Shown here: in pieces, positions 856-35,281 of the stretch
Layout: the number at the start of each line of letters is the position of its first letter
Numbering within the stretch: position 1 is the first letter of the stretch
DNA from: Rhodothermales bacterium
Lineage (GTDB): Bacteria; Bacteroidota; Rhodothermia; Rhodothermales; Bin80
Length of the DNA: 64,000 nucleotides
Reading direction: 5' to 3'
Assembly (NCBI GenBank): GCA_965220365.1
Contig: OZ244823.1
Location: forward strand, 81,650-145,649
Notes under the pieces: generated by a model
The model's input: only the letters and a program-made list of their open reading frames with translations
Database searches by the model: none
What the model was told of the DNA's origin: nothing
Program-made: the position numbers and the translations under genes

Positions 856-898
856 CAGTTTACTGTTATCTTAGTGCCGAATAGTAGGAAAAGAAACC

Positions 899-1675: not shown

Positions 1676-7042
<5,367 letters not shown>

Positions 7043-8434: not shown

Positions 8435-8499
8435 TCTGTTTCATTTTTGGAAAAGTACGACAAATTGGTTACCATACGGGACAAATTGATTTTTTTTTG

Positions 8500-9957
8500 A
8501 TGCTACGCCTTTTCCTTTTTATCCTCATTGCATCTGCCGGATGCACCCAAATACAACAATCCCCGAATGTGATCTATATCCTTGCCGATGACCTAGGATA
8601 TGGTGAGCTTGGTAGCTATGGCCAGACGTTGATCCAAACACCAAACCTGGATCAACTCGCCATCGAAGGAATGCGGTTTACCCAGCATTACAGTGGCAGC
8701 CCCGTATGTGCACCAAGTCGTTGCACACTGCTGACCGGGCTACATACCGGACACTGCCAAGTCCGTGACAACTACGAACTGGGGGGCTTTCCAGACAGTA
8801 CCGAGCGTGGACAGCTTCCGCTGGAAGAAGAGACGTATACACTTGGGCATATGATGCAGGATGCGGGCTATACGACTGCAATCATTGGAAAATGGGGACT
8901 TGGAGGACCGCATTCTATCGGGATTCCCACGGAGCAGGGATTCGATTATTTCTACGGATATCTGGATCAGAAACAAGCTCACAACCATTACCCATCCCAT
9001 CTCTGGCGCAATACCGAATGGGATACGCTTGCGAACGGCTATTTTCATCCGCATCAACGGTTTGAAGGTCTGGATTTGAATGATCCGACAGCCTATGACC
9101 GTTATAAAGGCCCGGACTATGCTCCAGACCTGATGGCAAATGAAGCTGAGCAGTTCATCCGTCAACATGCATCAGAACCATTCTTCCTCTACCTCGCGCA
9201 TACAGTACCTCACCTAGCACTTCAGGTGCCGGATGAAGAGCTGGAACCTTACGAGGGTGTTCTGGCGGAATCCCCTTATGATGGTAGCATGGGATACCTG
9301 CCTCATATCCGACCTCAATCCGCCTATGCAGCCATGATTACCCGCATGGATGCGCACATCGGTCGCATCGTTGAGGTGCTCCATGAACTCGGCATTGAAG
9401 AAGAAACCCTAATCATATTCTCGAGCGACAATGGCCCCACCTATACTGGAGGTGTGGACACGGAACAGTTTCATAGCTCAGGTGGGCTGCGGGGCGGCAA
9501 AGGTGAGGTCTACGAAGGGGGGATCCGGGTACCAATGATTGCTGCTTGGCCCGGTGTGATTGCATCTGGATCAACAACCGATCATGTATCTGCGTTTTGG
9601 GATGTGATGCCGACACTTGCCGATCTTGTGGGAACTAATCTGGTGGCAGAGGTCAATGGAGTCTCCTTTCTTCCTGTACTTATGGGACAGGGTCTCCCAA
9701 CGCCAAGTGAGATGTACTGGGAATACCACGGCCGCAGATGGAATGGAGCACAAGCCGCGAGGATTGGTCCCTGGAAGGGGGTACGGCTGGGTGGCCATGA
9801 CAATCCCGCCGCTCCAGTGAGTGTCTATCATCTGGACAATGATCCTGGGGAATTGACCAATCTTGCCGATGTACACCCTGAGATTGCCCAGGACTTGCTC
9901 TCTCTTATGCAATCGCGAAGTCACTCAAAAATTGAACGGTGGAACTTCGCCGAATAA
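8500..9957 (+). CDS. Arylsulfatase (formylglycine/Cys-type), probable lipoprotein
   Basis: The sulfatase signature is SPVCAPSRCTLLTGLHTGH, preceded by NVIYILADDLGYG. Internal Met at 8500 gives a lipobox-like signal MLRLFLFILIASAGC. The ORF track starts at 8410. Confidence 0.9.
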   Translation: MLRLFLFILIASAGCTQIQQSPNVIYILADDLGYGELGSYGQTLIQTPNLDQLAIEGMRFTQHYSGSPVCAPSRCTLLTGLHTGHCQVRDNYELGGFPDSTERGQLPLEEETYTLGHMMQDAGYTTAIIGKWGLGGPHSIGIPTEQGFDYFYGYLDQKQAHNHYPSHLWRNTEWDTLANGYFHPHQRFEGLDLNDPTAYDRYKGPDYAPDLMANEAEQFIRQHASEPFFLYLAHTVPHLALQVPDEELEPYEGVLAESPYDGSMGYLPHIRPQSAYAAMITRMDAHIGRIVEVLHELGIEEETLIIFSSDNGPTYTGGVDTEQFHSSGGLRGGKGEVYEGGIRVPMIAAWPGVIASGSTTDHVSAFWDVMPTLADLVGTNLVAEVNGVSFLPVLMGQGLPTPSEMYWEYHGRRWNGAQAARIGPWKGVRLGGHDNPAAPVSVYHLDNDPGELTNLADVHPEIAQDLLSLMQSRSHSKIERWNFAE

Positions 9958-9969: not shown

Positions 9970-12900
9970 CTAATACCGAAGCATTCCCTGCACATTCACG
10001 CCGATGTCTCCCGGTGCTGCATTGCGTCTGTGTGCCAGGCCAAAGATGGAGACGGAGAGCCGTTCCCACGGGCGGAGTTGGCCGCCCAGCCGGTACATCC
10101 TTCCTCCGGGCAACTGTGTCACTCCCATCACGGATCGTGCCGTCCCCTCTTTCCATGGAATCCCATAACCCAGTTCCAGATCCGTTCGCTGTCTGCCCGC
10201 CCCGATGGGTACCGCATCCAGTATGGTCTGCTGCCGGTACATGGACATTCCCTGCGCGCGTCCCCATGATGGGCGCAAACTCATCGTCAGCCCCTCGGAG
10301 CGGTTGCCGACCTGCAGGGATCCCGAGAATCCCCACTCGGTAAACCCGTCTGCAGTATGCATGACCAGCCCCTGCGTCCGCACCTCGCCCCGCAACCGCC
10401 ACGCCGGGCTTGCAAACCGCACGCCACCCCCCAATTCCAGCCCCGTACCCGTTTCCGCACTGCCACCATCCTGCCGCACATTTGCCTCTACGTAGGGACG
10501 TATGCCTTTGGTGATCTGTGCACTGGCTTCCAATCCCACCCGGACCCGGACCACCTCTGCCGTGATGGCATGCTCTTCAATCTCCGCACCGGTCACCAGA
10601 AGATCGCCGTGATAGCGGAGCCGGGCAGATCCACCAGAGGCCAACGTCCCCCGCATTCCCATCGCCCCAAACCGTGTCGTCATCTCTGCGTCTAACTCGG
10701 ACACCTCAGCCTGTCCACGTCCGGCTCCCCCGCTCAACCATACCTCCCAGCCCGCACGCGTGTACGACGCATACGGATAGATGCCCGTCAACGCAGAGGT
10801 GATGTCTCCTGACTCGTTCTCCACCTCAAACGATCCGTCTCCCCGGCTGTGCGCAAGCAGCACACCCGCCAGCCAGCCGCCACGCCAGCGATAGTCCGCC
10901 CCCAGCATTGCTGTCGTCACCTCGCCCCGGAGCGTCAATGGCTGCTGACCATTGAACTGCCGGAATGCACCCCGTCCCCACACACTGAGAGATCCGCCGG
11001 GCAGGAGCATGCTTTCCGACATGCGACAACCCGCCAGAAGTTCGCCCGGAGACGGATCCCATCTTGAATACCAGAGTTGTGCCATCTCGGCACGCTCAAG
11101 CGCCGTACACGCCGCCCCGTCTGCAGCCGAGCGGAACCGATCGCCCAATGCCTCCACCACCTGCACCGAAGACGTCCGCACAAATCGCGCCGCGTACGCC
11201 TCCAGAACCCGTTCACTGACCGTCGTTGACTCCTGGATCGTGGCCACGCCCACCGCCTTTTCAATCCGGGCATGCTCCGAGGAGCTCAGATGCAATGTGA
11301 ACGTCTCCTGCCCCCAATCCAATCCCCCCTTCAAGAGCGGCACGGCAATCATCGCCTCGGTCGTTCCCGGAGCCAGAGTGACGACCCCCGAAGAGGCCTG
11401 ATAGTCTTCGCCGGCCCTGGCCGTCCCATCCCGGGTCCGGTACTGCGCCGACACCATCTCACGCTGCGGCTGCGAGAGCAGGACCCGAAACCGGACCTCT
11501 GCCTCCTCTTCCAGGACCCGTGCATCCTCCACCCGCAGAGCCGCCGCACTCTGGTCATCGTCCAGAATCGTCCCCGTCCCGGTGCCTCGCGCAATGGTCG
11601 CATTGCGGGCATTGGACAGCGTCACCCGGAACGTCTCATCGTCTTCCGGCAGTTCGTCATCAATGATCGCGATCTCCACCACACCCCGGGTGGCACCCGG
11701 ATCAAAGATCACCACCCCGCGCGAGGCCGTATAGTCCAGACCGGCCTCCGCCGTGTCATCCGAACTCGCATACTGAACCGTCACCACCTGATCCGTCGCA
11801 CGACTGAGCTCGATGGGAAGTTGAAGACGCCCCGCGTTCTCGGATCCCTGCTGACTCCAGATCGAAATCGTCACGGGCCCCTTGTCCGTGATCGTAACCT
11901 GGGTCGTATGAGAGACACCGTTGTAACCGCCCCCGGATGCCGTGAGCAAAAGACGCACCTGATCCTCCTCATCATTGTCATCCTCGGCCGCCGTCAGCGT
12001 GACCGTCTGGGAAGTCTTCCAGTTCGTCGTCGTAAAGGTGAGCGAGGCCCGGTCCAGCGTCAACTGCGTCCCCGCATGGCCGGTGAGCGCTATCGTCACC
12101 GTGCCCGAAGGCTCTGCAGACAGGCGAACCTCAAGCGCGGACTGGGTCCCCTCTGCCATCGTCACCTCCGCCGGGGCAACAATCTCCGCCTCGTCATTAT
12201 CCTCCACCGTCACCGTAACCCGATGCTCAATCCCCGCATAGCCACCTCCATCTGCCGTCAACGTGAGGGTCTCTGAATCATCCACAACATCATCGTCATG
12301 CCCGGCCGTCAGCGTGACCGTCTGCGGAGTCTCCCAGTTCGTCGTCGTAAAGCTCAGACGCGTTGGAGATGCAGTGAGCTCCCCCGCAAAGCCAGAAACC
12401 GTCACCGTCACCGTGCCCGAAGGCTTCGCAGACAGGTGAACCCCGAACTCGGAGTCTGTCTCTTCTTCGATCCTCACCGCATGCGGAGCAACAATCCCCG
12501 GCGTATCCTTGTCGATGATCGTGACCTGAAGCACATACACCTCGCCCGTGTAATCGGCCCCGGTTGCACGCAGGGTCACCTCTACCCGGTCAGGAGAAAT
12601 ATCATCATCCTCGTCCGCCGTCAGGGTCACCTGCTGCGGCTCGTTCCAGTCGGAAGGGGTAAAGATCCGGGTGATCGGGCTCACGGTCAGATCCGTCCCC
12701 CGAGGCCAATCCATCGTCACCGTCACTGCGCCCAGTGGCTCGGAGGCCAGCGAGAATCTGTACTCCTCGGTGCCTCCCTCCAACAGCGAGATCGATGGCG
12801 ACGCCTCAATGCCGACCGCATCATCATCTTCGATCGTGATATCCAGCGAATCTCCAGCTACCATCCCCTCCGGCAACGCACCCACCCGCACCGTAAAGGT

Positions 12901-15900
12901 CTCATCTTCTTCATCAATCTCATCGGGCGTGGTCCGGATCACATAGGTCCCGCTCGTTTCTTCTCTTTCGATCCTCACCTGCATGGGAGCGGCTGCATGG
13001 TAATCCTGCGCATCTGCGCTGCCAGGAGTCAGCACCAGAGGGATCGTCACCGCGGCGGGCAACTCCTCGGACAGTTTGACCGTCACCGTCACCGCCTCTC
13101 CCTCAGCCACCGGGTTCGTAGAGGCAAAAAGATCCACCCGAACAACTTCTGGCGGAACCCGGTCCCGGATCGTCACCCAATGCGAGGATTCCAGACCCGG
13201 CTCCAGAACCGCCGGATCCAGATCCCCCAAAGAAACGATAAACCGCTCATCCTGCGTGTCCGTATCCGCAATCGTCACAATCTGCCCCGTGCCCTCTGTC
13301 TCTTCGCCGGCAACCGTCACCTGTTTTAATTCGATATAATCTCCCGGCTCGGACGTATAGGGGGTATACGCCAGTGGAATCGTCACCGCAGTCTCCAGCG
13401 GATTCGCCAGCGTTACCCTTACCGTCACCGGATCCCCTTCGTCAACTACCTCTGGATCCACCGACAAGGTCACCTCCACCGGGGGCGGATCGTCATCGTC
13501 GATAATCGTGATCTCGACCTCCGAGGGATGACCAGCCTCCACATCCGCGGGCAGTGTGCCCAGTGCCACCACAAAACGCTCGCCTCCCTCAGAAATGTTA
13601 TCCGGGGTCGTACGCACTACGGCTGTACCGCTGCCTGAACCTGAAATAATCGTGATCTCCGAAACCGGAACATAATCGTTCGGCTCCGCGGGATCAACAG
13701 CCCCGGGCCGGTAGGTCAACGGAATCGTCACCGCGGCGGGTAATGCGCTGGAAAGCGTCGCCGTCACCGTGACCGAACTCCCCTCGCCCACCGGATTCGG
13801 ACTTGCCGATAAAGACACATTCGGGAGAATAACCGCAGGCGTATCCAAATCTGTAATCTCGACCCCCACCGAAGACGGCGTGCCTGCCGCAACCTCGGAA
13901 GGCAAATCCCCCAGGGCCACCGTAAACGTCTCATTGTCAGAATCCGCATCCTTCACCGTCGTGATCGTGCCCGTACCCTCCAGCGAATTCGCCGCAATCG
14001 TGATGGAGGCCAGACTGCCATAATCCCCCGCCTCCGCCGTACCCGGCGTCAACGTCAACGGAATCACTGCCGCCGTGGGCAATGCGCGGGACAGCCTCGC
14101 CGTTACCGTCACATCCTCTCCCTCGTCCACCGGATTCGGACTTGCAGATAAGCTTACTGTAGGCGTATCACGGATCGTTACCAGCACCGAAGACGGCGTG
14201 CCTGCCACAACCTCGGAAGGCAAATCCCCCAGGGCTACCGTGAACGTCTCATCATCAGAATCCGCATCCTTCACCGTCGTGATCGTGCCCGTACCCGTCA
14301 GCGAATTCGCCGCAATCGTGATGGAGGCCAGACTGCCGTAGTCCCCCTTCTCTGCTGTACCCGGCGTCAGCGTCAACGGAATCGTCATCGAAGTCGACAA
14401 CGCGCTGGACAGCGTCGCCGTTACCGTCACCGAACTCCCCTCTTTCACCGGATTCGGACTTGCAGATAAGCTTACTGTAGGCGTATCACGGATCGTTACC
14501 AGCTCCGAAGACGGCGATCCCGCCGCAACCTCGGAAGGCAAATCCCCCAGTGCTACCGTGAACGTCTCATCGTCAAAATCCGTATCCCGCACGGTTGTAA
14601 TCGTGCCCGTACCCTCCAGCGAATTCGCCGCAATCGTGATGGAGGCCAGACCGCCATAGTCCCCCTTCTCCGCCGTGCCCGGCGTCAACGTCAGCGGAAT
14701 CGTCACCGCGGCGGGTAATGCCTGGGAAAGCGTCGCCGTCACCGTCACCGAACTTCCCTCGTCCACCGGATTCGGATTTGCAGATAAGCTTACCGCAGGC
14801 TTCTCACGGATCGTTACCAGCACCGAAGACGGCGTGCCTGCCACAACCTCGGAAGGCAGACTCCCCAGGGCAACCGTGAACGTCTCATCATCAGAATCCG
14901 CATCCTTCACCGTCGTGATCGTGCCCGTACCCGTCAGCGCATTGGCCGCAATCGTGATGGAGGCCAAACTGCCATAATCCCCCGTCTCCGCGGGATCAAC
15001 AGCCCCGGGCCGGTACGTCAACGGAATCGTCACCGCGGCGGGTAATGCCTGGGACAGCGTCGCCGTTACCGTCACCGAACTCCCCTCGTTCACCGGCGTG
15101 GTCGCCGATAGATGTACTGCAGGCGTCACCGGAGGCGTATCCAAATCTGTAATCTCTACCTCCTCCGAGGACGGCGATCCTTCCACAACCTCGGAGGGCA
15201 AATCCCCCAGGGCCACCGTGAACGTCTCATCGTCAAAATCCGTATCCCGCACGGTTGTAATCGTGCCCGTACCCTCCAGCGAATTCGCCGCAATCGTGAT
15301 GGAGGCCAGACTGCCGTAGTCCCCCTTCTCTGCTGTACCCGGCGTCAGCGTCAACGGAATCGTCATCGAAGTCGACAACGCGCTGGAAAGCGTCGCCGTT
15401 ACCGTCACCGAACTCCCCTCTTTCACCGGATTCGGACTTGCAGATAAGCTTACTGTAGGCGTATCGAGATCCGTAATCGTTACCAGCTCCGAAGACGGCG
15501 ATCCCGCCGCAACCTCGGAAGGCAGACTCCCCAGGGCAACCGTGAACGTCTCATCGTCAAAATCCGTATCCCGCACGGTTGTAATCGTGCCCGTACCCTC
15601 CAGCGAATTCGCCGCAATCGTGATGGAGGCCAGACTGCCGTAGTCCCCCTTCTCTGCTGTACCCGGCGTCAGCGTCAACGGAATCGTCATCGAAGTCGAC
15701 AACGCGCTGGAAAGCGTCGCCGTTACCGTCACCGAACTCCCCTCTTTCACCGGATTCGGACTTGCAGATAAGCTTACTGTAGGCGTATCGAGATCCGTAA
15801 TCGTTACCAGCTCCGAAGACGGCGTTCCCGCCACAACCTCGGAAGGTAAATCCCCCAGTGCTACCGTAAACGTCTCATCATCAGAATCCGTATCCCGCAC

Positions 15901-18900
15901 GGTTGTAATCGTGCCCGTACCCTCCAGCGAATTCGCTGCAATCGTGATGGAGGCCAGACCGCCATAGTCCCCCTTCTCTGCCGTGCCCGGCGTCTGCGTC
16001 AGCGGAATCGTCACCGAAGTGGGTAATGCTCCAGAAAGCGTCGCCGTCACCGTCACCGAACTTCCCTCGTCCACCGGATTCGGATTTGCAGATAGATGTA
16101 CCGCAGGCTTCTCACGGATCGTTACCAGCACCGAAGACGGCGTTCCTTCCACAACCTCGGAAGGCAAATCCCCCAGGGCTACCGTGAACGTCTCATCGTC
16201 AAAATCCGTATCCCGCACGGTTGTAATCGTGCCCGTACCTGCCTCCGCATTGGCCGCAATCGTGATGGAGGCCAGACTGCCATAGTCCCCCGCCTCCGCC
16301 GTACCCGGCGTCAACGTCAACGGAATCACTGCCGCCGTGGGCAATGCGCGGGACAGCGTCGCCGTCACCGTCACCGCCTTTCCTTCGTCCACCGGATTCG
16401 GACTTGCAAATAAGCTTACCGTAGGCGTATCGAGATCCGTAATCGTTACCTCCACCGAAGACGGCGCTCCTGCCGCAACCCCGGAAGGCAGACTCCCCAG
16501 GGCCACCGTAAACGTCTCATCGTCAGAATCCGTATCCTTCACCGTCGTGATCGTGCCCGTACCCTCCAGCGCATTGGCCGCAATCGTGATGGAGGCCAGA
16601 CTGCCATAGTCCCCCGCCTCCGCCGTACCCGGCGTCAACGTCAACGGAATCACTGCCGCCGTGGGCAATGCGCGGGACAGCGTCGCCGTCACCGTCACCG
16701 CCTTTCCTTCGTCCACCGGATTCGGACTTGCAAATAAGCTTACCGTAGGCGTATCGAGATCCGTAATCGTTACCTCCACCGAAGACGGCGTGCCTGCCGC
16801 AACCCCGGAAGGCAGACTCCCCAGGGCCACCGTAAACGTCTCATCGTCAGAATCCGTATCCCTCACCGTCGTGATCGTGCCCGTACCCTCCAGCGCATTG
16901 GCCGCAATCGTGATGGAGGCCAGACTGCCATAGTCCCCCTTCTCTGCCGTGCCCGGTGTCAGCGTCAGCGGAATTGTCACCGCGGCAGGCAACGCGCGGG
17001 ACAGCCTCGCCGTCACCGTCACCGCCTTTCCCTCGTCCACCGGATTCGGATTTGCAGATAAGCTTACCGTAGGCGTATCGAGATCCGTAATCGTTACCTC
17101 CACCGAAGACGGCGCTCCTGCCGCAACCCCGGAAGGCAGACTCCCCAGGGCCACCGTGAACGTCTCATCGTCAAAATCCGTATCCCGCACGGTTGTAATC
17201 GTGCCCGTACCCTCCAGCGCATTGGCCGCAATCGTGATGGAGGCCAGACTGCCATAGTCCCCCTTCTCCGCCGTGCCCGGCGTCAACGTCAGCGGAATTG
17301 TCACCGCGGCAGGCAACGCGCTGGACAGCGTCGCCGTTACCGTCACCGAACTCCCCTCGTCCACCGGCGTGGTCGCCGATAGATGTACTGCAGGCGTCAC
17401 CGGAGGCGTATCCAAATCTGTAATCTCTACCTCCTCCGAGGACGGCGATCCTTCCACAACCTCGGAGGGCAAATCCCCCAGGGCCACCGTGAACGTCTCA
17501 TCGTCAAAATCCGTATCCCGCACGGTTGTAATCGTGCCCGTACCCTCCAGCGAATTCGCCGCAATCGTGATGGAGGCCAGACTGCCGTAGTCCCCCTTCT
17601 CTGCTGTACCCGGCGTCAGCGTCAACGGAATCGTCATCGAAGTCGACAACGCGCTGGAAAGCGTCGCCGTTACCGTCACCGAACTCCCCTCTTTCACCGG
17701 ATTCGGACTTGCAGATAAGCTTACCGTAGGCGTATCGAGATCCGTAATCGTTACCAGCTCCGAAGACGGCGATCCCGCCGCAACCTCGGAAGGCAGACTC
17801 CCCAGGGCAACCGTGAACGTCTCATCGTCAAAATCCGTATCCCGCACGGTTGTAATCGTGCCCGTACCCTCCAGCGAATTCGCCGCAATCGTGATGGAGG
17901 CCAGACTGCCGTAGTCCCCCTTCTCTGCTGTGCCCGGCGTCAGCGTCAACGGAATTGTCACCGCGGCAGGCAACGCGCTGGAAAGCCTCGCCGTTACCGT
18001 CACCGCCTTTCCCTCGTCCACCGGATTCGGACTTGCAGATAAGCTTACTGTAGGCGTATCGAGATCCGTAATCGTTACCAGCTCCGAAGACGGCGATCCC
18101 GCCGCAACCTCGGAAGGCAGACTCCCCAGGGCCACCGTAAACGTCTCATCGTCAGAATCCGTATCCCTCACCGTCGTGATCGTGCCCGTACCCTCCAGCG
18201 CATTGGCCGCAATCGTGATGGAGGCCAGACTGCCATAGTCCCCCTTCTCTGCCGTGCCCGGTGTCAGCGTCAGCGGAATTGTCACCGCGGCAGGCAACGC
18301 GCGGGAAAGCCTCGCCGTCACCGTCACCGCCTTTCCCTCGTCCACCGGATTCGGACTTGCAGATAAGCTTACTGTAGGCGTATCGAGATCCGTAATCGTT
18401 ACCAGCTCCGAAGACGGCGATCCCGCCGCAACCTCGGAAGGCAGACTCCCCAGGGCAACCGTGAACGTCTCATCGTCAAAATCCGTATCCCGCACGGTTG
18501 TAATCGTGCCCGTACCCTCCAGCGAATTCGCCGCAATCGTGATGGAGGCCAGACCGCCATAGTCCCCCTTCTCCGCCGTGCCCGGCGTCAACGTCAGCGG
18601 AATCGTCACCGCGGCGGGTAATGCCTGGGAAAGCGTCGCCGTCACCGTCACCGAACTTCCCTCGTCCACCGGATTCGGATTTGCAGATAAGCTTACCGCA
18701 GGCTTCTCACGGATCGTTACCAGCACCGAAGACGGCGTGCCTGCCACAACCTCGGAAGGCAGACTCCCCAGGGCAACCGTGAACGTCTCATCATCAGAAT
18801 CCGCATCCTTCACCGTCGTGATCGTGCCCGTACCCGTCAGCGCATTGGCCGCAATCGTGATGGAGGCCAAACTGCCATAATCCCCCGTCTCCGCGGGATC

Positions 18901-21900
18901 AACAGCCCCGGGCCGGTACGTCAACGGAATCGTCACCGCGGCGGGTAATGCTCCAGAAAGCCTCGCCGTCACCGTCACCGCATCTCCCTCGTCCACCGGG
19001 TTCGGATTTGCTGATAGTGTAATTGTCGGCTTCTCGCTGATCGTTACCAGCACCGAGGTTGGCGCCCCTGCCACAACCGTGGATGGCAAACTACTTGCAT
19101 CAATCTCCAGCGTAAACGTATCGTCATCGGAATCCGTATCTGGATAGGTTTGGATCGTTCCCCTAGCTACCCCACTGCCCGGGAGAAGCGGAACTGATAT
19201 TGAGCGTAAGTTGCCGTAGTCTTCCTGCTCTGCCGTTACGGGGATCAATGTCAGCGGAATTCTCTCTCCCCTTGGAAGCGGCGTTCCCACGAGCATTACC
19301 GTCACCTCTAGATCATCCCCCTCACCCACCGACGTGGTCGCAGACAAACTCACTGCCGGCTTGTCTGTAATCGCCACTTCCTGTAATATCATATCCCCTA
19401 CCCGAACACGAGGATCTATGGTATGTTCGTCAATCAACACTGTAAATGTCTCGTCCCCAGAGTCCGCATCTTCCGGTATAAAAAAGTCTTTACTGCCAGA
19501 ATACCCCTTCGTCGGGATTGTAATAATGACCCTCTGAGGGGGTGAGCCATAGTCTTGAGGTTGGGCTGTGCCGGAGATAAACATTACGGGAACCTGCACC
19601 TCGGTGTCAAACGGGGATGAAGGCGGAGGAACAAGTGCGACACTCAGACTTAACTCCGAACCCTCTGGTACCGCATTCGGGGACGCATACAACACTATTG
19701 TCGGCTTCTCATCATCTGTGATTGTAATCAGAGCGGATTTTGGATTCCCTGCGACAACCGTAGACGGTAGGCTACTCTCATTGAGAACTACCGTGAATGT
19801 CTCATCTTCCTTGTCGTTCACGTCCGACTCTTGGGGGATCATGATCGTCCCTGTTCCAGACAGAACACCCCCAAGAATCGTAATACTCGGCAAAATGCCA
19901 TAGTCACCCACTTCCGCCGTCCCAGCGGTCAGCGTCAGCGGAATGATCATATCCGTAACCAGATCCTTCGAAGTCGTCACTGTAATCACTACGCCCGAGC
20001 CCGTCCCTTCCAATACCGGGTTCGGAAATGCTGTCAGTGTGATCGTAGGCTTGTCATCGTCGATGATCGTGACCAGCACAGATTTTGGGTCTACCGCAAC
20101 GACTGTAGATGGTAACCCACTTTCATCAATCGCCACCGTAAAGGTCTCATCCTCCCAATCGGTTACATCCGACTCCTGGGGAACCATAATGGTTCCGGTC
20201 CCCGTCTTAACACTCCCGTTCCCGGGGATTGTTATACTTGACAGCGCACCGTAGTCACCGGCCTCTGCTGTCCCGGCAGTCAATATTAATGGAATCACTA
20301 CATCACTCGCCGGATCTTCGGAAATCGTTGCGGTGACGGTGACCGATTGGCCCTCCTCCACAGAGTTTGGAGATGCCGACAATGTAATCGTTGGCTTATC
20401 ATCGTCGGTGATCGTGATCAAAGCTGACTTCGGGTTCCCTATGACGACCGTAGCCGGAAGATTGCTCTCATCAATCATTACCGTAAAGGTCTCGTCCTCC
20501 CAATCGGTTACATCCGACTCCTGGGGGATCACGATCATCCCCATCCCGGTCGTTGCACTCCCAGTCCCAGGGATCGTGATATCTGACAGTGCACCGTAGT
20601 CGCCAGCTTCCGCCGTCCCAGCAGTTAATATTAATGGAATCACTACATCACTTGCAGGATCCTCCGAGAGCGTCACCGTAACTTTAACTGATTGGCCCTC
20701 GCTTACCGGGTTAGGAGATGCCGACAAACGGATCGTTGGCTTATCATCGTCGGTGATCGTGACCAGCACGGATTTTGGGGCTACCGCAACGACCGTAGAT
20801 GGTAAACCACTTTCATTAATCGCTACCATAAAGGTCTCATCCTCCCAATCGGTTACATCCGACTCCTGGGGAATCATAATGGTTCCGGTCCCCGTCATAA
20901 CACTCCCGGCCCCGGGAATCGTGATGGTTGACAGCGTACCGTAGTCGCCAGCTTCCGCCGTCCCGGCAGTCAATGTTAATGGAATCACCACATCACTGGC
21001 AGGATCCTCCGAGAGCATCACCGTAACTGTAACCGACTGGCCCTCGCTCACCGGGTTTGGGGATGCAGACAGATGTACCGTCGGCTTGTCATCATCGATG
21101 ATCGTGACCAGCACGGATTTTGGGTCTACCGCAACGACCGTAGATGGTAACCCACTTTCATCAATCGCCACCGTAAAGGTCTCATCCTCCCAATCGGTTA
21201 CATCCGACTCCTGGGGGATCACGATCGTCCCCATCCCGGTCGTTGCGCTCCCAGTCCCAGGGATCGTGATATCTGGCAGTGCACCGTAGTCGCCAGCTTC
21301 CGCCGCCCCGGCAGTCAATATTAATGGAATCACTACATCACTTGCCGGATCTTCGGAAATCGTTGCGGTGACCGTAACGGAGCCGCCCTCGTTTACTGGA
21401 TTGGGAGAGGCCGATAAATTGACGGTCACCTTATCATCATCTATGATGGTGACCTCAACCTCAGACGGATCTCCTGCCGCCACCCCCTGCGGTAGTCTCC
21501 CCAATACCACCATAAAGGTTTCATCGTCCTGCTCGGCATTGTCTTCTAACGTGGAGAGAATGAACCGGCCGCTTGTCGCGTTCCCGGCCCCACGGATCGT
21601 GATAAAGCCCCCGGATATACTCCCGTAATCGCTCGATTCCGCTGTACCCGCTATGATCTTAAACGAAATCTCCACATCATTGACTGGATCCTCTGAAATT
21701 GTTGCGGTGATTGTGACCTGTTCGCCCTCGTCTACAGGGTTTGGAGATGCCGACAATGTGACCTTCGGTCTATCATTATCCTTGAAGTGAAGCTCTACAT
21801 AACCTGTCCTCCGAACTGTACCTCCCAGAACTTCTACATCAATGTGCAGCGTACCGTCGGTGTCGATTTTGTTGTTGTCCGCATGGGACACCGTGACCAC

Positions 21901-23496
21901 CTGATCTGTGCTCCAATTTGATTTCGTGAACTCCAATTCCTCCTTGTCAAGAGTCACGGGGATCGCTTCGCCGGATCGCTGCGATAACCGCACACGCACT
22001 TTTCTTCCTAAAGGCGGCCCAGTCAACTGAATACTGAACGTCTCACTTGAACCCTCTTGAAATGGATCAATCACCGGTGGGCTCAACACCGGCTTGGGAC
22101 GTGCACTGTCCAGAATCGTCACCTCTACTGATTTCGGATTCCCTGCAACGACCGTAGATGGTAACCCACTTTCATCAATCGCCAACGTGAACAACTCATC
22201 GTCCCTGTCATTGGCATCTGCCTCAGTGGGAATCGTAAGCGTTCCATTCGCGCTTGTAAGATTCCGGGCCCCGGGAATCGTGATGGTTGGCAACGGACCG
22301 TAGTCGCCGACTTCCGCGGAACCCCCAGGAAGGACTGTTAGCGGAACGATCACATCTGTCGCCAGATCTTCCGAAATCGCCGCCGTGATTGTAACTGATC
22401 CACCCTCGTCTACAGGGTTTGGAGATGCCGACAATGTGACCTTCGGTCTATCATTATCCTTGAAGTGAAGCTCTACATAACCTGTCCTCCGAACTGTACC
22501 TCCCAGAACTTCTACATCAATGTGCAGCGTACCGTCGGTGTCGATTTTGTTGTTGTCCGCATGGGACACCGTGACCACCTGATCTGTGCTCCAATTTGAT
22601 TTCGTGAACTCCAATTCCTCCTTGTCAAGAGTCACGGGGATCGCTTCGCCGGATCGCTGCGATAACCGCACACGCACTTTTCTTCCTAAAGGCGGCCCAG
22701 TCAACTGGATACTGAACGTCTCACTTGAACCCTCTTGAAATGGATCAATCACCGGTGGGCTCAACACCGGCTTGGGACGTGCATTATCCAGAATCGTGAC
22801 ATCTACCCATTTCTGATGCCCTGGAACCACCGTAAGCGACAGTCTTGTCTCATCAATCTCCACCGTAAATTCCTCATCATCATTGTCATTGGCATCTGTT
22901 TCAACGGGAATCGTAAGCGTTCCATTCGCGCTTGTACTATTCCCGGGAATCGTGATGGTTGGCAACGGACCATAGTCACTTGGTTCTGCACTGCCCCCAG
23001 CCCTAACCACCAAAGGAACCACTACATCCGTAGACAAAGACTGCGAAATCGTCGCCGTGATCTTGACCGATCCCCCCTCATCCACTATGGTTGGAGACCC
23101 TGCCAATGTGACGGTCACGATATCATCTGGAAACAATCCCGGAATCGTTGCCCTCCACCCGGAGAACCCTTCTGTCACCGGATTCAATACCTGCTTTGAT
23201 ATCCCTGTCAGCGTATCATGACTCGTAGTCTGTGAACTTCCCGAAACACCGAAATAATATAGCCGCTTGCTCTTCTCAACTCCTAGCAGTCCACGGACTG
23301 CTAGGTTATACCTGTCTTGTGCAAACGCAACTCTCTGTGGAGTGGAGAGACTGAAGGAGGTTGTAACTGCGAGGTCTGTGCTAGGCTCAGAGACTATTTG
23401 AACACCAATTTTGCCAAATTCGGTGGATACACTGCCAACTTGGCAAACAATTATTAATGCGATCATATACATATCTCGTCTCGCATGTAAGGCCAA
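9970..23496 (-). CDS. Giant (4,508-aa ORF) Calx-beta-repeat adhesin-like protein with a C-terminal autotransporter (type Va-like) beta-barrel
   Basis: I count 31 modules carrying the D-[DE]-[ET]-F Calx-beta hallmark (e.g. GDYGSLASITIAANALEGTGTITTVRDTDSDDETFTVAL), including two canonical Calx-beta units near the C-terminus. Five modules of a second type are also present (LxFTxxNWxxxQxVT). A linker helix is followed by about 330 aa of alternating-pattern barrel (WGRGAF...GADYRW...ends QGMLRY). The ORF opens at TTG 23496; ATGs at 23472 and 23466 (MYMIALIIVCQVGSV) are more plausible starts. Confidence 0.85.
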   Translation of the reverse strand: MALHARRDMYMIALIIVCQVGSVSTEFGKIGVQIVSEPSTDLAVTTSFSLSTPQRVAFAQDRYNLAVRGLLGVEKSKRLYYFGVSGSSQTTSHDTLTGISKQVLNPVTEGFSGWRATIPGLFPDDIVTVTLAGSPTIVDEGGSVKITATISQSLSTDVVVPLVVRAGGSAEPSDYGPLPTITIPGNSTSANGTLTIPVETDANDNDDEEFTVEIDETRLSLTVVPGHQKWVDVTILDNARPKPVLSPPVIDPFQEGSSETFSIQLTGPPLGRKVRVRLSQRSGEAIPVTLDKEELEFTKSNWSTDQVVTVSHADNNKIDTDGTLHIDVEVLGGTVRRTGYVELHFKDNDRPKVTLSASPNPVDEGGSVTITAAISEDLATDVIVPLTVLPGGSAEVGDYGPLPTITIPGARNLTSANGTLTIPTEADANDRDDELFTLAIDESGLPSTVVAGNPKSVEVTILDSARPKPVLSPPVIDPFQEGSSETFSIQLTGPPLGRKVRVRLSQRSGEAIPVTLDKEELEFTKSNWSTDQVVTVSHADNNKIDTDGTLHIDVEVLGGTVRRTGYVELHFKDNDRPKVTLSASPNPVDEGEQVTITATISEDPVNDVEISFKIIAGTAESSDYGSISGGFITIRGAGNATSGRFILSTLEDNAEQDDETFMVVLGRLPQGVAAGDPSEVEVTIIDDDKVTVNLSASPNPVNEGGSVTVTATISEDPASDVVIPLILTAGAAEAGDYGALPDITIPGTGSATTGMGTIVIPQESDVTDWEDETFTVAIDESGLPSTVVAVDPKSVLVTIIDDDKPTVHLSASPNPVSEGQSVTVTVMLSEDPASDVVIPLTLTAGTAEAGDYGTLSTITIPGAGSVMTGTGTIMIPQESDVTDWEDETFMVAINESGLPSTVVAVAPKSVLVTITDDDKPTIRLSASPNPVSEGQSVKVTVTLSEDPASDVVIPLILTAGTAEAGDYGALSDITIPGTGSATTGMGMIVIPQESDVTDWEDETFTVMIDESNLPATVVIGNPKSALITITDDDKPTITLSASPNSVEEGQSVTVTATISEDPASDVVIPLILTAGTAEAGDYGALSSITIPGNGSVKTGTGTIMVPQESDVTDWEDETFTVAIDESGLPSTVVAVDPKSVLVTIIDDDKPTITLTAFPNPVLEGTGSGVVITVTTSKDLVTDMIIPLTLTAGTAEVGDYGILPSITILGGVLSGTGTIMIPQESDVNDKEDETFTVVLNESSLPSTVVAGNPKSALITITDDEKPTIVLYASPNAVPEGSELSLSVALVPPPSSPFDTEVQVPVMFISGTAQPQDYGSPPQRVIITIPTKGYSGSKDFFIPEDADSGDETFTVLIDEHTIDPRVRVGDMILQEVAITDKPAVSLSATTSVGEGDDLEVTVMLVGTPLPRGERIPLTLIPVTAEQEDYGNLRSISVPLLPGSGVARGTIQTYPDTDSDDDTFTLEIDASSLPSTVVAGAPTSVLVTISEKPTITLSANPNPVDEGDAVTVTARLSGALPAAVTIPLTYRPGAVDPAETGDYGSLASITIAANALTGTGTITTVKDADSDDETFTVALGSLPSEVVAGTPSSVLVTIREKPAVSLSANPNPVDEGSSVTVTATLSQALPAAVTIPLTLTPGTAEKGDYGGLASITIAANSLEGTGTITTVRDTDFDDETFTVALGSLPSEVAAGSPSSELVTITDLDTPTVSLSASPNPVDEGKAVTVTARLSRALPAAVTIPLTLTPGTAEKGDYGSLASITIAANALEGTGTITTVRDTDSDDETFTVALGSLPSEVAAGSPSSELVTITDLDTPTVSLSASPNPVDEGKAVTVTARLSSALPAAVTIPLTLTPGTAEKGDYGSLASITIAANSLEGTGTITTVRDTDFDDETFTVALGSLPSEVAAGSPSSELVTITDLDTPTVSLSASPNPVKEGSSVTVTATLSSALSTSMTIPLTLTPGTAEKGDYGSLASITIAANSLEGTGTITTVRDTDFDDETFTVALGDLPSEVVEGSPSSEEVEITDLDTPPVTPAVHLSATTPVDEGSSVTVTATLSSALPAAVTIPLTLTPGTAEKGDYGSLASITIAANALEGTGTITTVRDTDFDDETFTVALGSLPSGVAAGAPSSVEVTITDLDTPTVSLSANPNPVDEGKAVTVTARLSRALPAAVTIPLTLTPGTAEKGDYGSLASITIAANALEGTGTITTVRDTDSDDETFTVALGSLPSGVAAGTPSSVEVTITDLDTPTVSLFASPNPVDEGKAVTVTATLSRALPTAAVIPLTLTPGTAEAGDYGSLASITIAANALEGTGTITTVKDTDSDDETFTVALGSLPSGVAAGAPSSVEVTITDLDTPTVSLFASPNPVDEGKAVTVTATLSRALPTAAVIPLTLTPGTAEAGDYGSLASITIAANAEAGTGTITTVRDTDFDDETFTVALGDLPSEVVEGTPSSVLVTIREKPAVHLSANPNPVDEGSSVTVTATLSGALPTSVTIPLTQTPGTAEKGDYGGLASITIAANSLEGTGTITTVRDTDSDDETFTVALGDLPSEVVAGTPSSELVTITDLDTPTVSLSASPNPVKEGSSVTVTATLSSALSTSMTIPLTLTPGTAEKGDYGSLASITIAANSLEGTGTITTVRDTDFDDETFTVALGSLPSEVAAGSPSSELVTITDLDTPTVSLSASPNPVKEGSSVTVTATLSSALSTSMTIPLTLTPGTAEKGDYGSLASITIAANSLEGTGTITTVRDTDFDDETFTVALGDLPSEVVEGSPSSEEVEITDLDTPPVTPAVHLSATTPVNEGSSVTVTATLSQALPAAVTIPLTYRPGAVDPAETGDYGSLASITIAANALTGTGTITTVKDADSDDETFTVALGSLPSEVVAGTPSSVLVTIREKPAVSLSANPNPVDEGSSVTVTATLSQALPAAVTIPLTLTPGTAEKGDYGGLASITIAANSLEGTGTITTVRDTDFDDETFTVALGDLPSEVAAGSPSSELVTIRDTPTVSLSASPNPVKEGSSVTVTATLSSALSTSMTIPLTLTPGTAEKGDYGSLASITIAANSLTGTGTITTVKDADSDDETFTVALGDLPSEVVAGTPSSVLVTIRDTPTVSLSASPNPVDEGEDVTVTARLSRALPTAAVIPLTLTPGTAEAGDYGSLASITIAANSLEGTGTITTVKDADSDNETFTVALGDLPSEVAAGTPSSVGVEITDLDTPAVILPNVSLSASPNPVGEGSSVTVTATLSSALPAAVTIPLTYRPGAVDPAEPNDYVPVSEITIISGSGSGTAVVRTTPDNISEGGERFVVALGTLPADVEAGHPSEVEITIIDDDDPPPVEVTLSVDPEVVDEGDPVTVRVTLANPLETAVTIPLAYTPYTSEPGDYIELKQVTVAGEETEGTGQIVTIADTDTQDERFIVSLGDLDPAVLEPGLESSHWVTIRDRVPPEVVRVDLFASTNPVAEGEAVTVTVKLSEELPAAVTIPLVLTPGSADAQDYHAAAPMQVRIEREETSGTYVIRTTPDEIDEEDETFTVRVGALPEGMVAGDSLDITIEDDDAVGIEASPSISLLEGGTEEYRFSLASEPLGAVTVTMDWPRGTDLTVSPITRIFTPSDWNEPQQVTLTADEDDDISPDRVEVTLRATGADYTGEVYVLQVTIIDKDTPGIVAPHAVRIEEETDSEFGVHLSAKPSGTVTVTVSGFAGELTASPTRLSFTTTNWETPQTVTLTAGHDDDVVDDSETLTLTADGGGYAGIEHRVTVTVEDNDEAEIVAPAEVTMAEGTQSALEVRLSAEPSGTVTIALTGHAGTQLTLDRASLTFTTTNWKTSQTVTLTAAEDDNDEEDQVRLLLTASGGGYNGVSHTTQVTITDKGPVTISIWSQQGSENAGRLQLPIELSRATDQVVTVQYASSDDTAEAGLDYTASRGVVIFDPGATRGVVEIAIIDDELPEDDETFRVTLSNARNATIARGTGTGTILDDDQSAAALRVEDARVLEEEAEVRFRVLLSQPQREMVSAQYRTRDGTARAGEDYQASSGVVTLAPGTTEAMIAVPLLKGGLDWGQETFTLHLSSSEHARIEKAVGVATIQESTTVSERVLEAYAARFVRTSSVQVVEALGDRFRSAADGAACTALERAEMAQLWYSRWDPSPGELLAGCRMSESMLLPGGSLSVWGRGAFRQFNGQQPLTLRGEVTTAMLGADYRWRGGWLAGVLLAHSRGDGSFEVENESGDITSALTGIYPYASYTRAGWEVWLSGGAGRGQAEVSELDAEMTTRFGAMGMRGTLASGGSARLRYHGDLLVTGAEIEEHAITAEVVRVRVGLEASAQITKGIRPYVEANVRQDGGSAETGTGLELGGGVRFASPAWRLRGEVRTQGLVMHTADGFTEWGFSGSLQVGNRSEGLTMSLRPSWGRAQGMSMYRQQTILDAVPIGAGRQRTDLELGYGIPWKEGTARSVMGVTQLPGGRMYRLGGQLRPWERLSVSIFGLAHRRNAAPGDIGVNVQGMLRY
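13830..19030 (-). repeat. About 16 head-to-tail copies of a 324-bp (108-aa) coding repeat with higher-order identical blocks
   Basis: Antisense ORFs in the track recur with a 324-nt period (16337/16661; 16949/17273; 17930/18254/18578). Identical 100-111-aa antisense ORFs occur at 14675 vs 18578 and at 15112 vs 17383. Confidence 0.9.
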
Positions 23497-23624: not shown

Positions 23625-25772
23625 CTGAACTTCCCCCCTTTCTGGTTTCCCCGATATACGATATTCCCCATGAATTTAGGATATTTTGGGGATAGATTGC
23701 CCCTCCTCAGCGGGGGGGATCTGGGGGCTTTTCCTCAATTCTGTGAACCAAAGGGCTACACCGGCTTGATGCCTAGAAGTTTGAGTGCCCGCTGTTGGGT
23801 AGGACTAATTTTCTCCACCATGATCACTTCCGGGGATTTATCTACGGAGATTTTTGGTACAACAACCAGACGGCAAAGCCCCGCGAGTTCGTCCATCACC
23901 TCGGCAAAGCTCATGACTTTTTCTCCTTCATGATTTCGTTTGGTTCGGGCTTTCTTTTTCGTCCGGGGAGAGGGTTTGGCCGGTTCCACGGCATTCTTGC
24001 GCTGTGCAGCTTTCCCCGCTGGATCATCCTCAGTAAACAACATGGGGGCTAACTTCCGGCGCAGATGATACTCCACATAGTAGGCCAGCATGCATAAAAA
24101 CACATGGGCGATCACCCGGTTTTTCTTGCGATGGTGAATTGGACGTACGCGCAACGAGATTGTTTTCATCGTGCGAAAGGCCTGCTCCACCGTGGACAGA
24201 CGCTTATAATTCGCCACCAATTCGGTCGCCTCCGGCTTCTGTTTCAAACTGGAGCGGATCGCATACAAGCCGTCAAGCCGTTCTGCCTTCGCAATGGCCG
24301 CCGCATTGCGCTCATAGGCAAAGTGTTCCTGCTCAATCTCCAGCGTGAAGAACTTCTGGACCTTGTATTTTCCAATGACCCGCCCGACGCGTACGCCAAT
24401 TTTGCCTTTGCACGTTAACCGGCGCTGCGCACGCTTGGTGGCTGCAACAATTTCATCCAGGGCTTGCTCGGTCTTGATCAGGAGTTCTTCCCGCTGTCGC
24501 TTGCTCTTCTGGGCCTGCAAGGGGTTTCTGCATAACACAATCCGATCCTCTGGATACAGATCACTGTGTAGTTCCATCACATCCTGTTCATCAAACAGGC
24601 TCATCTGCACCTGTTTCTGTTCCACCACCGCACGAATCTCATTCTTTTTCATGGCGGTGATCCAGTCGAGTCCCACGGGGATCAACTCTTCCTGAATCTG
24701 CTTTTGCTGCAGGATTCCCCGATCCCCTACCAACACCACTTGCTGGAGCCCAAAGGTCTGCTGAAGCTTCTTCACCTGCGCACCAAGCGTCTCTACATCT
24801 GCGGTATTGCCGCGGAAAACTTCGACCGACACCGGGCAGCCCTCTGGATCGGTCATCAGACCGATAACGATCTGCTGCTTGCCCCGCTTCTTGTCCCGGT
24901 TGTAGCCATAGGCGGCAAATTCATTCTGCTGGCCTTCCACATAGCTGCTGGTGACATCATAGAGCACCATACCACCTTCCTTGAGGTATCGTTTGGCGAG
25001 GCGCTGCTCAATACGTGTTTTGTGTTGGAGCAGTTGATCCATCGCAGCATACAGATCCTCCTCGTCCACACATTTGAGTCCAAGCTCTTCATTGAGCGTG
25101 GAGGCGGCGGTGCGCACATCCAACATAGAGCTGGTGGCCAGTTTGCTGGCCGGCTTGATTACCCGTGCGGCGATCATGCCGAGCACCAGTCGTCGGAAGC
25201 GGGAATTCTTCGGCGCAATGAGTTCAGGCAGATCCAGTTGATTCATGATGCCCAGGACCGCGGCAACGTGTCCGTGCGGGGTATTGCTTTGAATGGTGAA
25301 GGCGTCTTCAACGGATTTGACAGCGGTGCCTCCCTTCAAGAGAACCCGAAGCCCCTCAATGACGTCCATGGGGAGTTTGGAGATATTGGCGAGGGTGGTT
25401 TTGACGATTTTCCCCTGGACGCGTTTGGATTCTCGAATGAGCCAGGTGGGGTTGGAATTTCGGTTGGGGATTTTGGCTACATACATGGGTACATGTGTGG
25501 AATCAGTTTCTGGGATAATATACGCATTTATTGGTAATTATACCAAAAATCTGTTCCAATTTATCGAAAAAACATTCCCAAATACATGGGTACATAAAAA
25601 TCAATGCTAAATCCCCCGAAATACCTGTTTTGGGAGAAGAAATCAAGGAAAAAACGTGAAATACCCCGAATATCAAGGGGCCACAGTACAAATTATGGAC
25701 CCTTGAGTACGCAATGGAGTGCCTTAATCCTTAATCCAACCAATGGGGAGGGAAATTAGGGGGGAAGTTCAG
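23625..25772 (-). mobile_element. IS1634-like (IS4 superfamily) element, 2,148 bp, inserted into the IS5 transposase gene
   Basis: Perfect 14-nt terminal IRs ctgaacttcccccc (23625-23638) / ggggggaagttcag (25759-25772). These are flanked by a 6-bp direct repeat ATTTGA (23619-23624 and 25773-25778). Subterminal aggatattttgggg / ccccgaaatacct repeats are also present. Confidence 0.85.
23756..25486 (-). CDS. IS1634-family DDE transposase
   Basis: 576 aa. The N-terminus MYVAKIPNRNSNPTWLIRESKRVQGKIVKTTLANISKL is typical of IS1634-type transposases. A basic C-terminal tail is present. Confidence 0.85.
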   Translation of the reverse strand: MYVAKIPNRNSNPTWLIRESKRVQGKIVKTTLANISKLPMDVIEGLRVLLKGGTAVKSVEDAFTIQSNTPHGHVAAVLGIMNQLDLPELIAPKNSRFRRLVLGMIAARVIKPASKLATSSMLDVRTAASTLNEELGLKCVDEEDLYAAMDQLLQHKTRIEQRLAKRYLKEGGMVLYDVTSSYVEGQQNEFAAYGYNRDKKRGKQQIVIGLMTDPEGCPVSVEVFRGNTADVETLGAQVKKLQQTFGLQQVVLVGDRGILQQKQIQEELIPVGLDWITAMKKNEIRAVVEQKQVQMSLFDEQDVMELHSDLYPEDRIVLCRNPLQAQKSKRQREELLIKTEQALDEIVAATKRAQRRLTCKGKIGVRVGRVIGKYKVQKFFTLEIEQEHFAYERNAAAIAKAERLDGLYAIRSSLKQKPEATELVANYKRLSTVEQAFRTMKTISLRVRPIHHRKKNRVIAHVFLCMLAYYVEYHLRRKLAPMLFTEDDPAGKAAQRKNAVEPAKPSPRTKKKARTKRNHEGEKVMSFAEVMDELAGLCRLVVVPKISVDKSPEVIMVEKISPTQQRALKLLGIKPV

Positions 25773-26711: not shown

Positions 26712-27043
26712 CTCTGCCCAAACGCCACCGATGGCCGTCTGGCGCCTGAAAAAGGTACGTGGCGGTGGACAAATAGAACGCATTTAGGATGCCAACAGCC
26801 TCCGTGGCCGCATTTCATGTCCGAGTATGTCTACTCCTCCTCCAAAACAGGATTGATCAGAGCTTCCTGTATTTGTTGAAGACCCGTACAGTTTAATACA
26901 TTGTAGCTAAGTCATTGTCTCGCCTCCATGTATTTCGTCCGTGGCACACTACATACCTGAGTACCCAAGGCACACAGGTATGTAATTCCCAAAGAAAAAC
27001 ATCGTACTATTGTGGTTCAATCTTCAATCTACTTGTACAACAA

Positions 27044-35215: not shown

Positions 35216-35281
35216 GACTTGACGCGTTTTCCAGTGCAGCATAAAAATACATCCATGCTCTAACATAAACCCCATTCGACG

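Follow-up and report, generated by a model that had tools for sequence, protein, structure and literature searches.

In type Va autotransporters (NalP, EspP, Hbp, AIDA-I), an N-terminal signal, a passenger, a helical linker and a C-terminal barrel are carried on one polypeptide chain, and the classical barrel has 12 strands (PMC9289746). Type Ve proteins such as intimin and invasin carry a tandem immunoglobulin (Ig)-like rod with an adhesive distal tip on a single barrel. Adhesins of the type I secretion system (T1SS), such as Pseudomonas LapA, consist of thousands of residues of Ca2+-type beta-sandwich repeats, and adhesins that Bacteroidota export by type IX secretion (T9SS) end in a sorting domain. 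Calx-beta domains are the hallmark domains of sponge aggregation factors (PMC5400394), and the Calx-beta family PF03160 has been reported to be enriched in Ircinia sponge microbiomes (PMC9531527). Here we describe a giant gene of 4,508 codons from a Rhodothermales bacterium, found in a 64,000-nucleotide stretch of DNA that we analysed as a whole and call the window (assembly GCA_965220365.1, contig OZ244823.1, positions 81,650 to 145,649). We consider it likely that its product is a calcium-dependent surface adhesin that takes an autotransporter-like (type V-like) route, and that the gene is a mosaic within a large Rhodothermales family, not a newly imported island.

The giant gene is a single open reading frame (ORF) on the minus strand and is unbroken across 13.5 kb (Table 1), as in the original prediction, which was made by a model from the sequence alone. 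The giant protein contains 36 modules, 31 of Calx-beta type and five of another Ig-like type. The predicted number of 31 Calx-beta modules was correct, because a hidden Markov model (HMM) derived from the repeats found 29 strong modules of ~106–115 aa each, to which two canonical Calx-beta domains are added; the motif count behind the prediction did not hold, as the literal DDETF motif occurs 17 times in the protein and 21 times by a relaxed pattern. The two canonical domains (aa 3881–3977 and 3990–4092) were reached more weakly by the same HMM (E = 5e-8 and 9e-7), while Pfam matched this region with E = 1.6e-33. In an AlphaFold2 model, the last Calx-beta domain gave target TM-scores of 0.8–0.88 against CBD1 of NCX/CALX and the Calx-beta domain of integrin beta4. 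These two barrel-proximal domains are thus Calx-beta (PF03160) domains by sequence and by predicted fold. Over the entire protein, Pfam scored Calx-beta at 293 bits and LapA at 266 bits, the latter summed over repeats. One array module scanned alone had no Pfam match to Calx-beta and only 12.6 bits to LapA, and homologous modules in other proteins were annotated as PF20579 and PF03160. Judged by sequence, divergent Calx-beta/LapA-like is the best description of the 29 array-type modules. The five predicted modules of the second Ig-like type were also present, two near the N-terminus (aa 237–352 and 463–578) and three preceding the canonical Calx-beta pair (aa 3561–3664, 3665–3771, and 3772–3880), and none of them scored above any Pfam threshold.

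The C-terminal region had been predicted to be an autotransporter beta-domain, and two curated models agreed with this assignment. PF03797 scored 38 bits against a gathering score of 26 (last 396 residues), and TIGR01414 scored 21.2 bits against a cut-off of 16 (last 476 residues). The two matches were colinear: positions 2–121 of the 255 in PF03797 corresponded to residues 61–172 of the 396-residue construct, and positions 332–393 of the 432 in TIGR01414 corresponded to residues 201–261 in the same numbering. About 135 residues remained after the model matches, against ~40 model positions left. In more distant family members, PF03797 covered positions 1–207 and 9–212 of 255, with 160–175 residues after the match. 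The barrel is ~90–100 residues longer than the autotransporter profile. Two AlphaFold2 runs on family alignments (mean pLDDT 83 and pTM 0.76; mean pLDDT 79 and pTM 0.64) both modelled 18 long strands and one short element in aa 4158–4508, and most of the barrel had block pLDDT values >90 in the first model. The 12 strands of classical type Va barrels were not found in these models, which predict ~18. Homology of the barrel to autotransporter barrels is therefore supported at the level of sequence, but the models do not support placing it in the classical 12-strand class.

The linker helix and the terminal aromatic residue that the original prediction had named were also borne out. A helix of 30 residues, VSERVLEAYAARFVRTSSVQVVEALGDRFR, was predicted at aa 4093–4122 (block pLDDT 73–90) and contains the linker motif that had been singled out. 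The 45 residues between this helix and strand 1 hold two cysteines, C4130 and C4157, which are conserved among the closest relatives. The protein ends in Tyr and its relatives in Y, W or F, which is the aromatic residue expected of a beta-signal. The giant protein has only three cysteines in 4,508 residues, one in the signal and two in the linker, and the ~4,100-residue passenger has none. A cysteine-free sequence is typical of type V passengers, which cross the outer membrane unfolded. A lipoprotein signal at C18 was considered and rejected, because the residues ahead of it depart from the canonical lipobox and the ortholog lacks a Cys at this site. Whole-protein Pfam scans and NCBIfam scans of four segments found neither a C-terminal sorting domain (PF18962/TIGR04183) nor a repeats-in-toxin (RTX)/T1SS signal in the giant protein, and Pfam gave no match to the inverse-autotransporter barrel family.

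Compared with the systems described above, the giant protein resembles type Va autotransporters in its layout, with a probable signal, a passenger, a predicted helical linker, and a C-terminal barrel on one chain, and in its matches to PF03797 and TIGR01414, its aromatic C-terminal residue, and its cysteine-free passenger. However, the barrel of ~340 aa has ~18 predicted strands instead of 12, only the first half of PF03797 aligns to it, and solved autotransporter barrels are not structurally close to it. Moreover, ~45 residues with a conserved Cys pair stand between helix and first strand, and the passenger consists of 36 beta-sandwich modules without a beta-helix. The tandem Ig-like rod on a single barrel with a distal tip, here only probably adhesive, is shared with type Ve proteins, but the topology is reversed, the barrel of the giant protein being C-terminal and the tip N-terminal. 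Like LapA-type T1SS adhesins, the protein matches the LapA domain and has thousands of residues of Ca2+-type beta-sandwich repeats in arrays that expand and contract, but it has no detected RTX/T1SS signal and would be anchored by its own barrel, not by a retention module in a TolC-like pore. T9SS adhesins of Bacteroidota belong to the same phylogenetic neighbourhood, and the same type of 108-aa module occurs with a PF18962 tag, but the giant protein ends in a barrel and lacks a sorting domain. With sponge aggregation factors and the 'eukaryote-like' Calx-beta proteins of sponge microbiomes, which were compared by domain type only, the giant protein shares Calx-beta domains arranged in tandem on what would be an adhesion molecule outside the cell.

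To place the barrel in a family, we scanned one genome per species with a query alignment of 12 closer barrel sequences and obtained at least 432 confirmed barrel relatives, of which the best 80 hits, representing 70 distinct loci, were kept. These 70 loci were found in 15 assemblies, of which 13 were labelled Rhodothermales and one Bacteroidetes, and the last was an Acidimicrobiaceae-binned contig of 3.5 kb that may be a binning error. Of the best loci, at least 12 were in OZ220707.1 and at least 14 in CBDBMQ01. More than half of the 88 barrel copies in these loci, 54, close a frame of 2,000 aa or longer, and four frames continue past the 10-kb flank after reaching at least 3,731 aa. We also searched 1.84 billion cluster representatives exhaustively with phmmer and recovered 5,566 clusters (50% identity) at E <= 1e-3, of which 292 had E <= 1e-30. 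In nearly all of the 150 best phmmer hits, the match ended within ~25 residues of the C-terminus, and the proteins were up to 5,259 aa long. The few members named in databases were called 'hypothetical protein' or 'leucine-rich repeat protein' and came from Rhodothermaceae and Bacteroidota metagenome-assembled genomes (MAGs). In the literature on Calx-beta with autotransporters and sponges, on Rhodothermales with sponges and autotransporters, and on 18-stranded autotransporters, we found no description of the barrel family.

The source organism had been predicted to belong to the Fibrobacterota-Chlorobiota-Bacteroidota (FCB) group and to use T9SS sorting tags, and both points were confirmed. 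Its PolA was 92%, its LigA 80%, and its sulfatase 84–86% identical to those of Rhodothermales MAGs, and T9SS-tagged proteins were encoded within the window and beside several barrel relatives. These sequence comparisons indicate an FCB-group bacterium of the Rhodothermales. By contrast, the view that type V passengers of this size are uncommon in this group was not supported. Given the abundance of barrel relatives in Rhodothermales genomes, which hold nearly all of the top loci, a large type V-like passenger is normal in this T9SS-bearing clade, not an oddity.

Synteny and sequence identity indicated that the giant gene is a mosaic, whose 5' third and 3' two-thirds differ in history. In three related Rhodothermales MAGs (loci L020, L031, and L069), a barrel-family gene occupies the same position and is followed by the convergent sulfatase; the L020 ortholog is an ORF of 3,422 aa, with LigA and PolA further downstream. 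Residues 129–1491 of the window protein were 72–78% identical to these syntenic orthologs, and at most 53% identical to every other locus. The 16 modules of the GC-rich array that follows showed 52–56% identity to related loci everywhere and at most 66% to the protein database, with the exception of one protein from a representative library, P0090 (3,606 aa). The last ~1,280 residues were nearer to non-syntenic paralogs than to syntenic orthologs, and for the barrel the identities were 78% and 69–70%, respectively. P0090 was 99–100% identical to the window protein over the last ~1,300 residues and ~87–90% identical over the array, where the module order was different, while its N-terminal 650–900 residues, including its own signal peptide, were unrelated. 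This near-identity implies that the 3' two-thirds of the giant gene are a block held in common with another gene. Within the array, Tandem Repeats Finder (TRF) identified 16.0 copies with a period of 324 nt (13832–19016, 87% matches). The array modules were 79–100% identical to one another in DNA, with a non-hierarchical pattern and one identical pair, and the array is evolving by unequal exchange.

The 3' ends of family members showed a similar pattern in other genomes. Barrels at dispersed loci of the same genome had DNA identities of 92–98%, with seven homogenised copies and four of a second subtype in OZ220707.1, ten copies in CBDBMQ01, and two copies at 100% in OZ219800.1, while the window barrel was at most 78% identical to any copy in other genomes. 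The tracts of high identity between paralogs occupied the last 2.6–4.2 kb of the gene, which is also where the window gene and P0090 coincide, and in five of six pairs the tract ended at, or within ~240 bp of, the 3' end of the gene. In the dispersed same-genome pairs L014/L022, L056/L060, L045/L046, L016/L064, and L049/L066, the 3' tract was 89–97% identical. The OZ219800.1 pair differed in having a 97.6%-identical tract of 8.1 kb that extends ~2.2 kb beyond the gene end.

The base composition changed at the same boundary. The original prediction had reported that the central repeats were GC-richer than the rest, and the excess was confirmed, with a GC content of 0.58–0.63 over 9–19 kb against 0.49–0.54 in the backbone; its extent was not, since the GC-rich part runs from aa 1492 to the stop codon and includes the barrel. 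At third codon positions, the GC content (GC3) was 0.50–0.59 in aa 129–1491 and 0.66–0.79 thereafter, and the step falls exactly on residues 1491/1492, the boundary between the modules at 1382–1491 and 1492–1600. Nor is the excess a matter of amino-acid bias: GC at fourfold-degenerate sites was 0.69–0.83 in aa 1492–4508, 0.45–0.60 in aa 1–1491, and 0.50–0.60 in the backbone genes compared. Across the family, barrel GC was above that of the 10-kb downstream flank in all 47 of the 47 loci compared, by a mean of 9.8 points, so the reading of the GC content as a sign of import is not supported. Near-identical paralogs had GC3 excesses of +0.09 to +0.24, and the more identical the nearest paralog, the greater the GC3 excess tended to be (Spearman 0.55, n = 41, copies non-independent and paralog sampling incomplete). 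A few copies in some of the low-GC genomes, without a close paralog among the sampled loci, had no GC3 excess, and a 2,514-aa homolog in a 44%-GC relative matched the GC of its surroundings. In our reading, GC-richness travels with the frequently recombining block, and GC-biased gene conversion is a plausible hypothesis for its cause. Recombination between family members best explains the odd GC content of the giant gene.

Horizontal acquisition, which the original prediction had favoured, would make the whole gene a recent foreign island, borne by insertion sequences (IS) from a GC-richer, type V-secreting donor. The fourfold-site GC of aa 1492–4508 and the two GC3-rich transposase genes immediately upstream are what such an origin would leave, and array-type modules with 65–73% identity do occur in MAGs labelled as other phyla. 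However, an island is expected to be missing from this position in close relatives and to have mobility elements at its boundaries, and neither was the case. The gene's position and downstream genes are conserved in L020, L031, and L069, on which the imported-island model fails, and the 5' third is host-like in composition and orthologous to the syntenic genes. Both IS elements sit upstream of the giant gene only, so that the predicted IS flanking was correct for that side but not for the downstream side, where the sulfatase is 12 bp away. The IS pair separates the giant gene from o26915 (window gene 26915–27601), but in L031 the o26915 homolog lies immediately upstream of the ortholog, with a gap of ~555 bp to the ortholog start, which is too little room for an IS of the size of the IS1634 element; the upstream IS therefore look like later intergenic insertions. 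Close barrel relatives were all in Rhodothermales, dozens per genome, and the GC excess was equally present in the 47 family loci. The island reading is thus already largely refuted by synteny, and we regard it as highly improbable. An assembly artefact, in which reads of two paralogs or strains were joined across near-identical repeats to create both the mosaic and the array copy number, is very unlikely. It would account for the high identity among array modules, including the identical pair, and for the P0090 3' end of ~1,300 aa. In addition, the assemblies index had no exact record of the window protein, taken from its codon-9 ATG, or of P0090, and a look-up of the sulfatase at 33830–35275 led to a single 16-kb contig with 1.92x coverage in its name. 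But the GC-rich barrel ends 12 bp from the syntenic sulfatase, and in a chimera the assembly would have had to switch again precisely at the stop codon. No break interrupts the reading frame over 13.5 kb, the array has another module order than the P0090 array and only ~87–90% identity to it and is therefore not a copy of it, and similar arrays and 3' blocks are present in chromosome-level assemblies of relatives.

Several observations weigh against our interpretation of the giant protein as a type V-like adhesin with a mosaic gene. PF03797 and TIGR01414 match the barrel only in part, and with a model of ~18 strands the mechanism of classical type Va proteins should not be taken for granted. 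Foldseek searches of the PDB with the barrel found no close solved barrel (TM-scores <=0.53, with the Hbp autotransporter domain ranked 34th), and matches from both models were to generic large outer-membrane barrels and were not informative on the family. PDB profile searches with the barrel and its neighbours matched only the Calx-beta domains of Na/Ca exchangers, and with the barrel alone they returned nothing meaningful (best E = 0.92). As to the gene's history, the 65–73% module matches in other phyla leave room for some older cross-lineage transfer of modules, P0090 could be a same-genome paralog or an allele of another strain, and the correlation between GC and conversion rests on non-independent copies and on incomplete paralog sampling among the best 80 hits. 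The points concerning the barrel could also be read as showing another kind of anchor or pore, with the repeats exported by a different machine or with a porin-like channel carrying a tethered domain. The ~18 strands in the model would fit this, as would the best Foldseek matches, which were large transporter barrels such as TonB-dependent receptors and LptD and not 12-strand autotransporter domains, the restriction of PF03797 coverage to positions 2–121 of 255, and the Ig-like arrays, which are atypical of type Va passengers. We nevertheless think it unlikely, because two curated autotransporter models, independent of each other, score above their cut-offs and align colinearly along the barrel, a 30-residue helix directly precedes it, the ~4,100-residue passenger is free of cysteine, the family's best hits are throughout long multi-domain proteins with the barrel at their very C-terminal end, and the scans found no T9SS tag or RTX/T1SS signal.

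If the giant protein follows the type Va/Ve paradigm, its short N-terminal signal would direct passage through Sec, and the BAM machinery for beta-barrel assembly would insert the C-terminal barrel into the outer membrane. The ~4,100-residue, almost cysteine-free passenger would then be threaded out unfolded, C-terminal end first, and the membrane-proximal stalk (three modules, three Ig-like modules, and two Calx-beta domains) would fold first and give directionality. By the same analogy, the 30-residue helix and the disulfide-bonded linker would stay in the lumen of an unusually wide barrel, and, more speculatively, the greater width might ease the passage of a cargo hairpin. The outcome would be a Ca2+-stiffened rod of 36 beta-sandwich modules, ~0.15 um in length given that a beta-sandwich domain is ~4 nm long, with a fast-evolving 100-residue tip (aa 25–128) as the likely ligand-binding end. 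Within the family, a ~4-kb 3' block of stalk, linker, and barrel is kept near-identical among same-genome paralogs while the N-terminal passengers vary. In the giant gene itself, a resident 5' third is joined to GC-rich 3' two-thirds, the 16-module array plus the 3' block, probably held in common with a paralog. A broader proposal, which we hold only tentatively, is that the family forms a distinct type V branch with an ~18-strand autotransporter-derived barrel, a helix and disulfide plug linker, and an Ig-like/Calx-beta stalk, specialised in exporting very long beta-sandwich arrays (up to >5,000 aa) in T9SS-bearing Rhodothermales, with its ~4-kb export block kept uniform across dozens of paralogs, and raised in GC well above the genome, by gene conversion.

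The N-terminus bears on this scheme at both the signal and the tip. Judged by eye, the window protein starts with a charged and then a hydrophobic stretch that is conserved with the syntenic ortholog, which begins MRDLYVFALVVLSVGMGFTE and resembles the signal-like start of the window protein; the start of the L020 ortholog is MRDLYVFALVVLSVGMGFTESDKIG, against RRDMYMIALIIVCQVGSVSTEFGKIG in the window protein. The actual start codon could also be an ATG at codon 9 or 11. Truncation of the gene's 5' end by the IS was considered and rejected, since the start of the L020 ortholog falls on the corresponding residue and likewise resembles a signal. The following tip domain was found only in the syntenic orthologs, with 43% identity compared with 72–78% in the adjacent modules, and neither the tip (aa 25–128) nor the N-terminal 128 aa as a whole matched a Pfam family. 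A tip that diverges much faster than the stalk fits a ligand-binding end.

Table 1 Features of the giant gene and of its surroundings in the window. Positions are those of the window; aa, residues of the giant protein.
Feature	Position	Strand	Description
Whole giant gene	9970..23496	-	4,508 codons and stop, single ORF
Probable Sec signal peptide, aa 1–24	23425..23496	-	(M)ALHARRDMYMIALIIVCQVGSVS / TEF; read by eye; kept in syntenic ortholog
N-terminal tip domain, aa 25–128	23113..23424	-	Only in syntenic orthologs, 43% identity
Host-like-GC passenger, aa 129–1491	19024..23112	-	11 Calx-beta/LapA-like and 2 Ig-like type-2 modules
Tandem repeat inside host-like-GC passenger	20015-21454		345-nt unit, 4.2 copies (TRF)
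GC-rich tandem array, aa 1492–3226	13819..19023	-	16 modules of ~108 aa (324-nt period)
Start of conserved 3' block, aa 3227–3560	12817..13818	-	Three unique Calx-beta/LapA-like modules; 99–100% identical to P0090
Three Ig-like type-2 modules, aa 3561–3880	11857..12816	-	
Two canonical Calx-beta domains, aa 3881–4092	11221..11856	-	Pfam and AlphaFold2
Linker, aa 4093–4167	10996..11220	-	Predicted 30-residue helix, then Cys-pair segment
C-terminal outer-membrane beta-barrel, aa 4168–4508	9973..10995	-	~18 predicted strands; ends ...GVNVQGMLRY
Sulfatase	8410..9957	+	Convergent with giant gene, 12 bp from its 3' end; conserved syntenic downstream neighbour
IS1634-family element	23625..25772	-	~130 bp upstream of giant gene start, not part of gene
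IS1634 transposase gene	23756-25486	-	NF033559, 322 bits
IS5-family transposase gene	25854..26711	+	NF033581, 246 bits; beside IS1634 element, second upstream insertion
Glucose/sorbosone dehydrogenase	39499-41208		He_PIG Ig domain and T9SS tag (Por_Secre_tail 28.2 bits vs 27, barely above threshold)

The IS1634-family element is complete. Its terminal inverted repeats of 15 nt (CTGAACTTCCCCCCT) are perfect, and the 5-bp sequence TTTGA is probably its target duplication. Its insertion so close to the start of the giant gene means that the promoter may be affected. Locus L033 carries a transposase 72% identical to that of the window IS1634 element. At L003, reverse transcriptases of group II introns and a Transposase_mut gene (1–4479) lie upstream of a giant family member, and at L002 an ISL3-type fragment (7617–8072) lies near another. 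Mobile elements may thus recur beside genes of the barrel family. Further from the giant gene, an OlsE-like ornithine-lipid hydroxylase homolog is encoded at 27782–28681 (95 bits, far under the equivalog cut-off of 475), with a fourfold-site GC of 0.67, above the 0.50–0.60 of the backbone genes.

Beyond the Rhodothermales, the 108-aa array module was 65–73% identical, over one module, to sequences in MAGs labelled Gemmatimonadetes, Acidobacteria, Dadabacteria, Chloroflexi, and Alphaproteobacteria. Many of the module-bearing proteins (P0253–P0372) combine Spond_N and fn3 domains, the spondin domain being found in Gemmatimonadetes, and some are T9SS-tagged and have no barrel. This suggests that the array module is a surface-protein module common across the phyla of one habitat. 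The window also encodes sulfatases at 8410–9957 and 33830–35275 and a formylglycine-generating enzyme (FGE)-sulfatase gene at 32982–33842, and the two sulfatases with the formylglycine-generating enzyme suggest the use of sulfated glycans. Together with the names and sources of related MAGs and the Calx-beta reports cited above, the sulfatase and FGE genes suggest a host-associated habitat, probably a sponge.

What is new here is an autotransporter-related protein that combines an enlarged barrel, as predicted by the models, with an Ig-like array passenger. If the 18 strands are true, it would be an autotransporter-related translocator with Ig-like passengers and a pore much wider than that of the 12-strand paradigm, and such a wide barrel would matter for the long-standing problem of cargo passage through type V barrels. 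The locus is also a cautionary case, in which a GC anomaly at synonymous sites and an adjacent IS mimic horizontal transfer while recombination between paralogs explains them better. If the link between paralog homogenisation and GC3 is confirmed, the family would be a natural setting in which to test for bacterial GC-biased gene conversion. The barrel family is among the biggest gene families of these probably host-associated Rhodothermales genomes, and yet it has remained uncharacterised.

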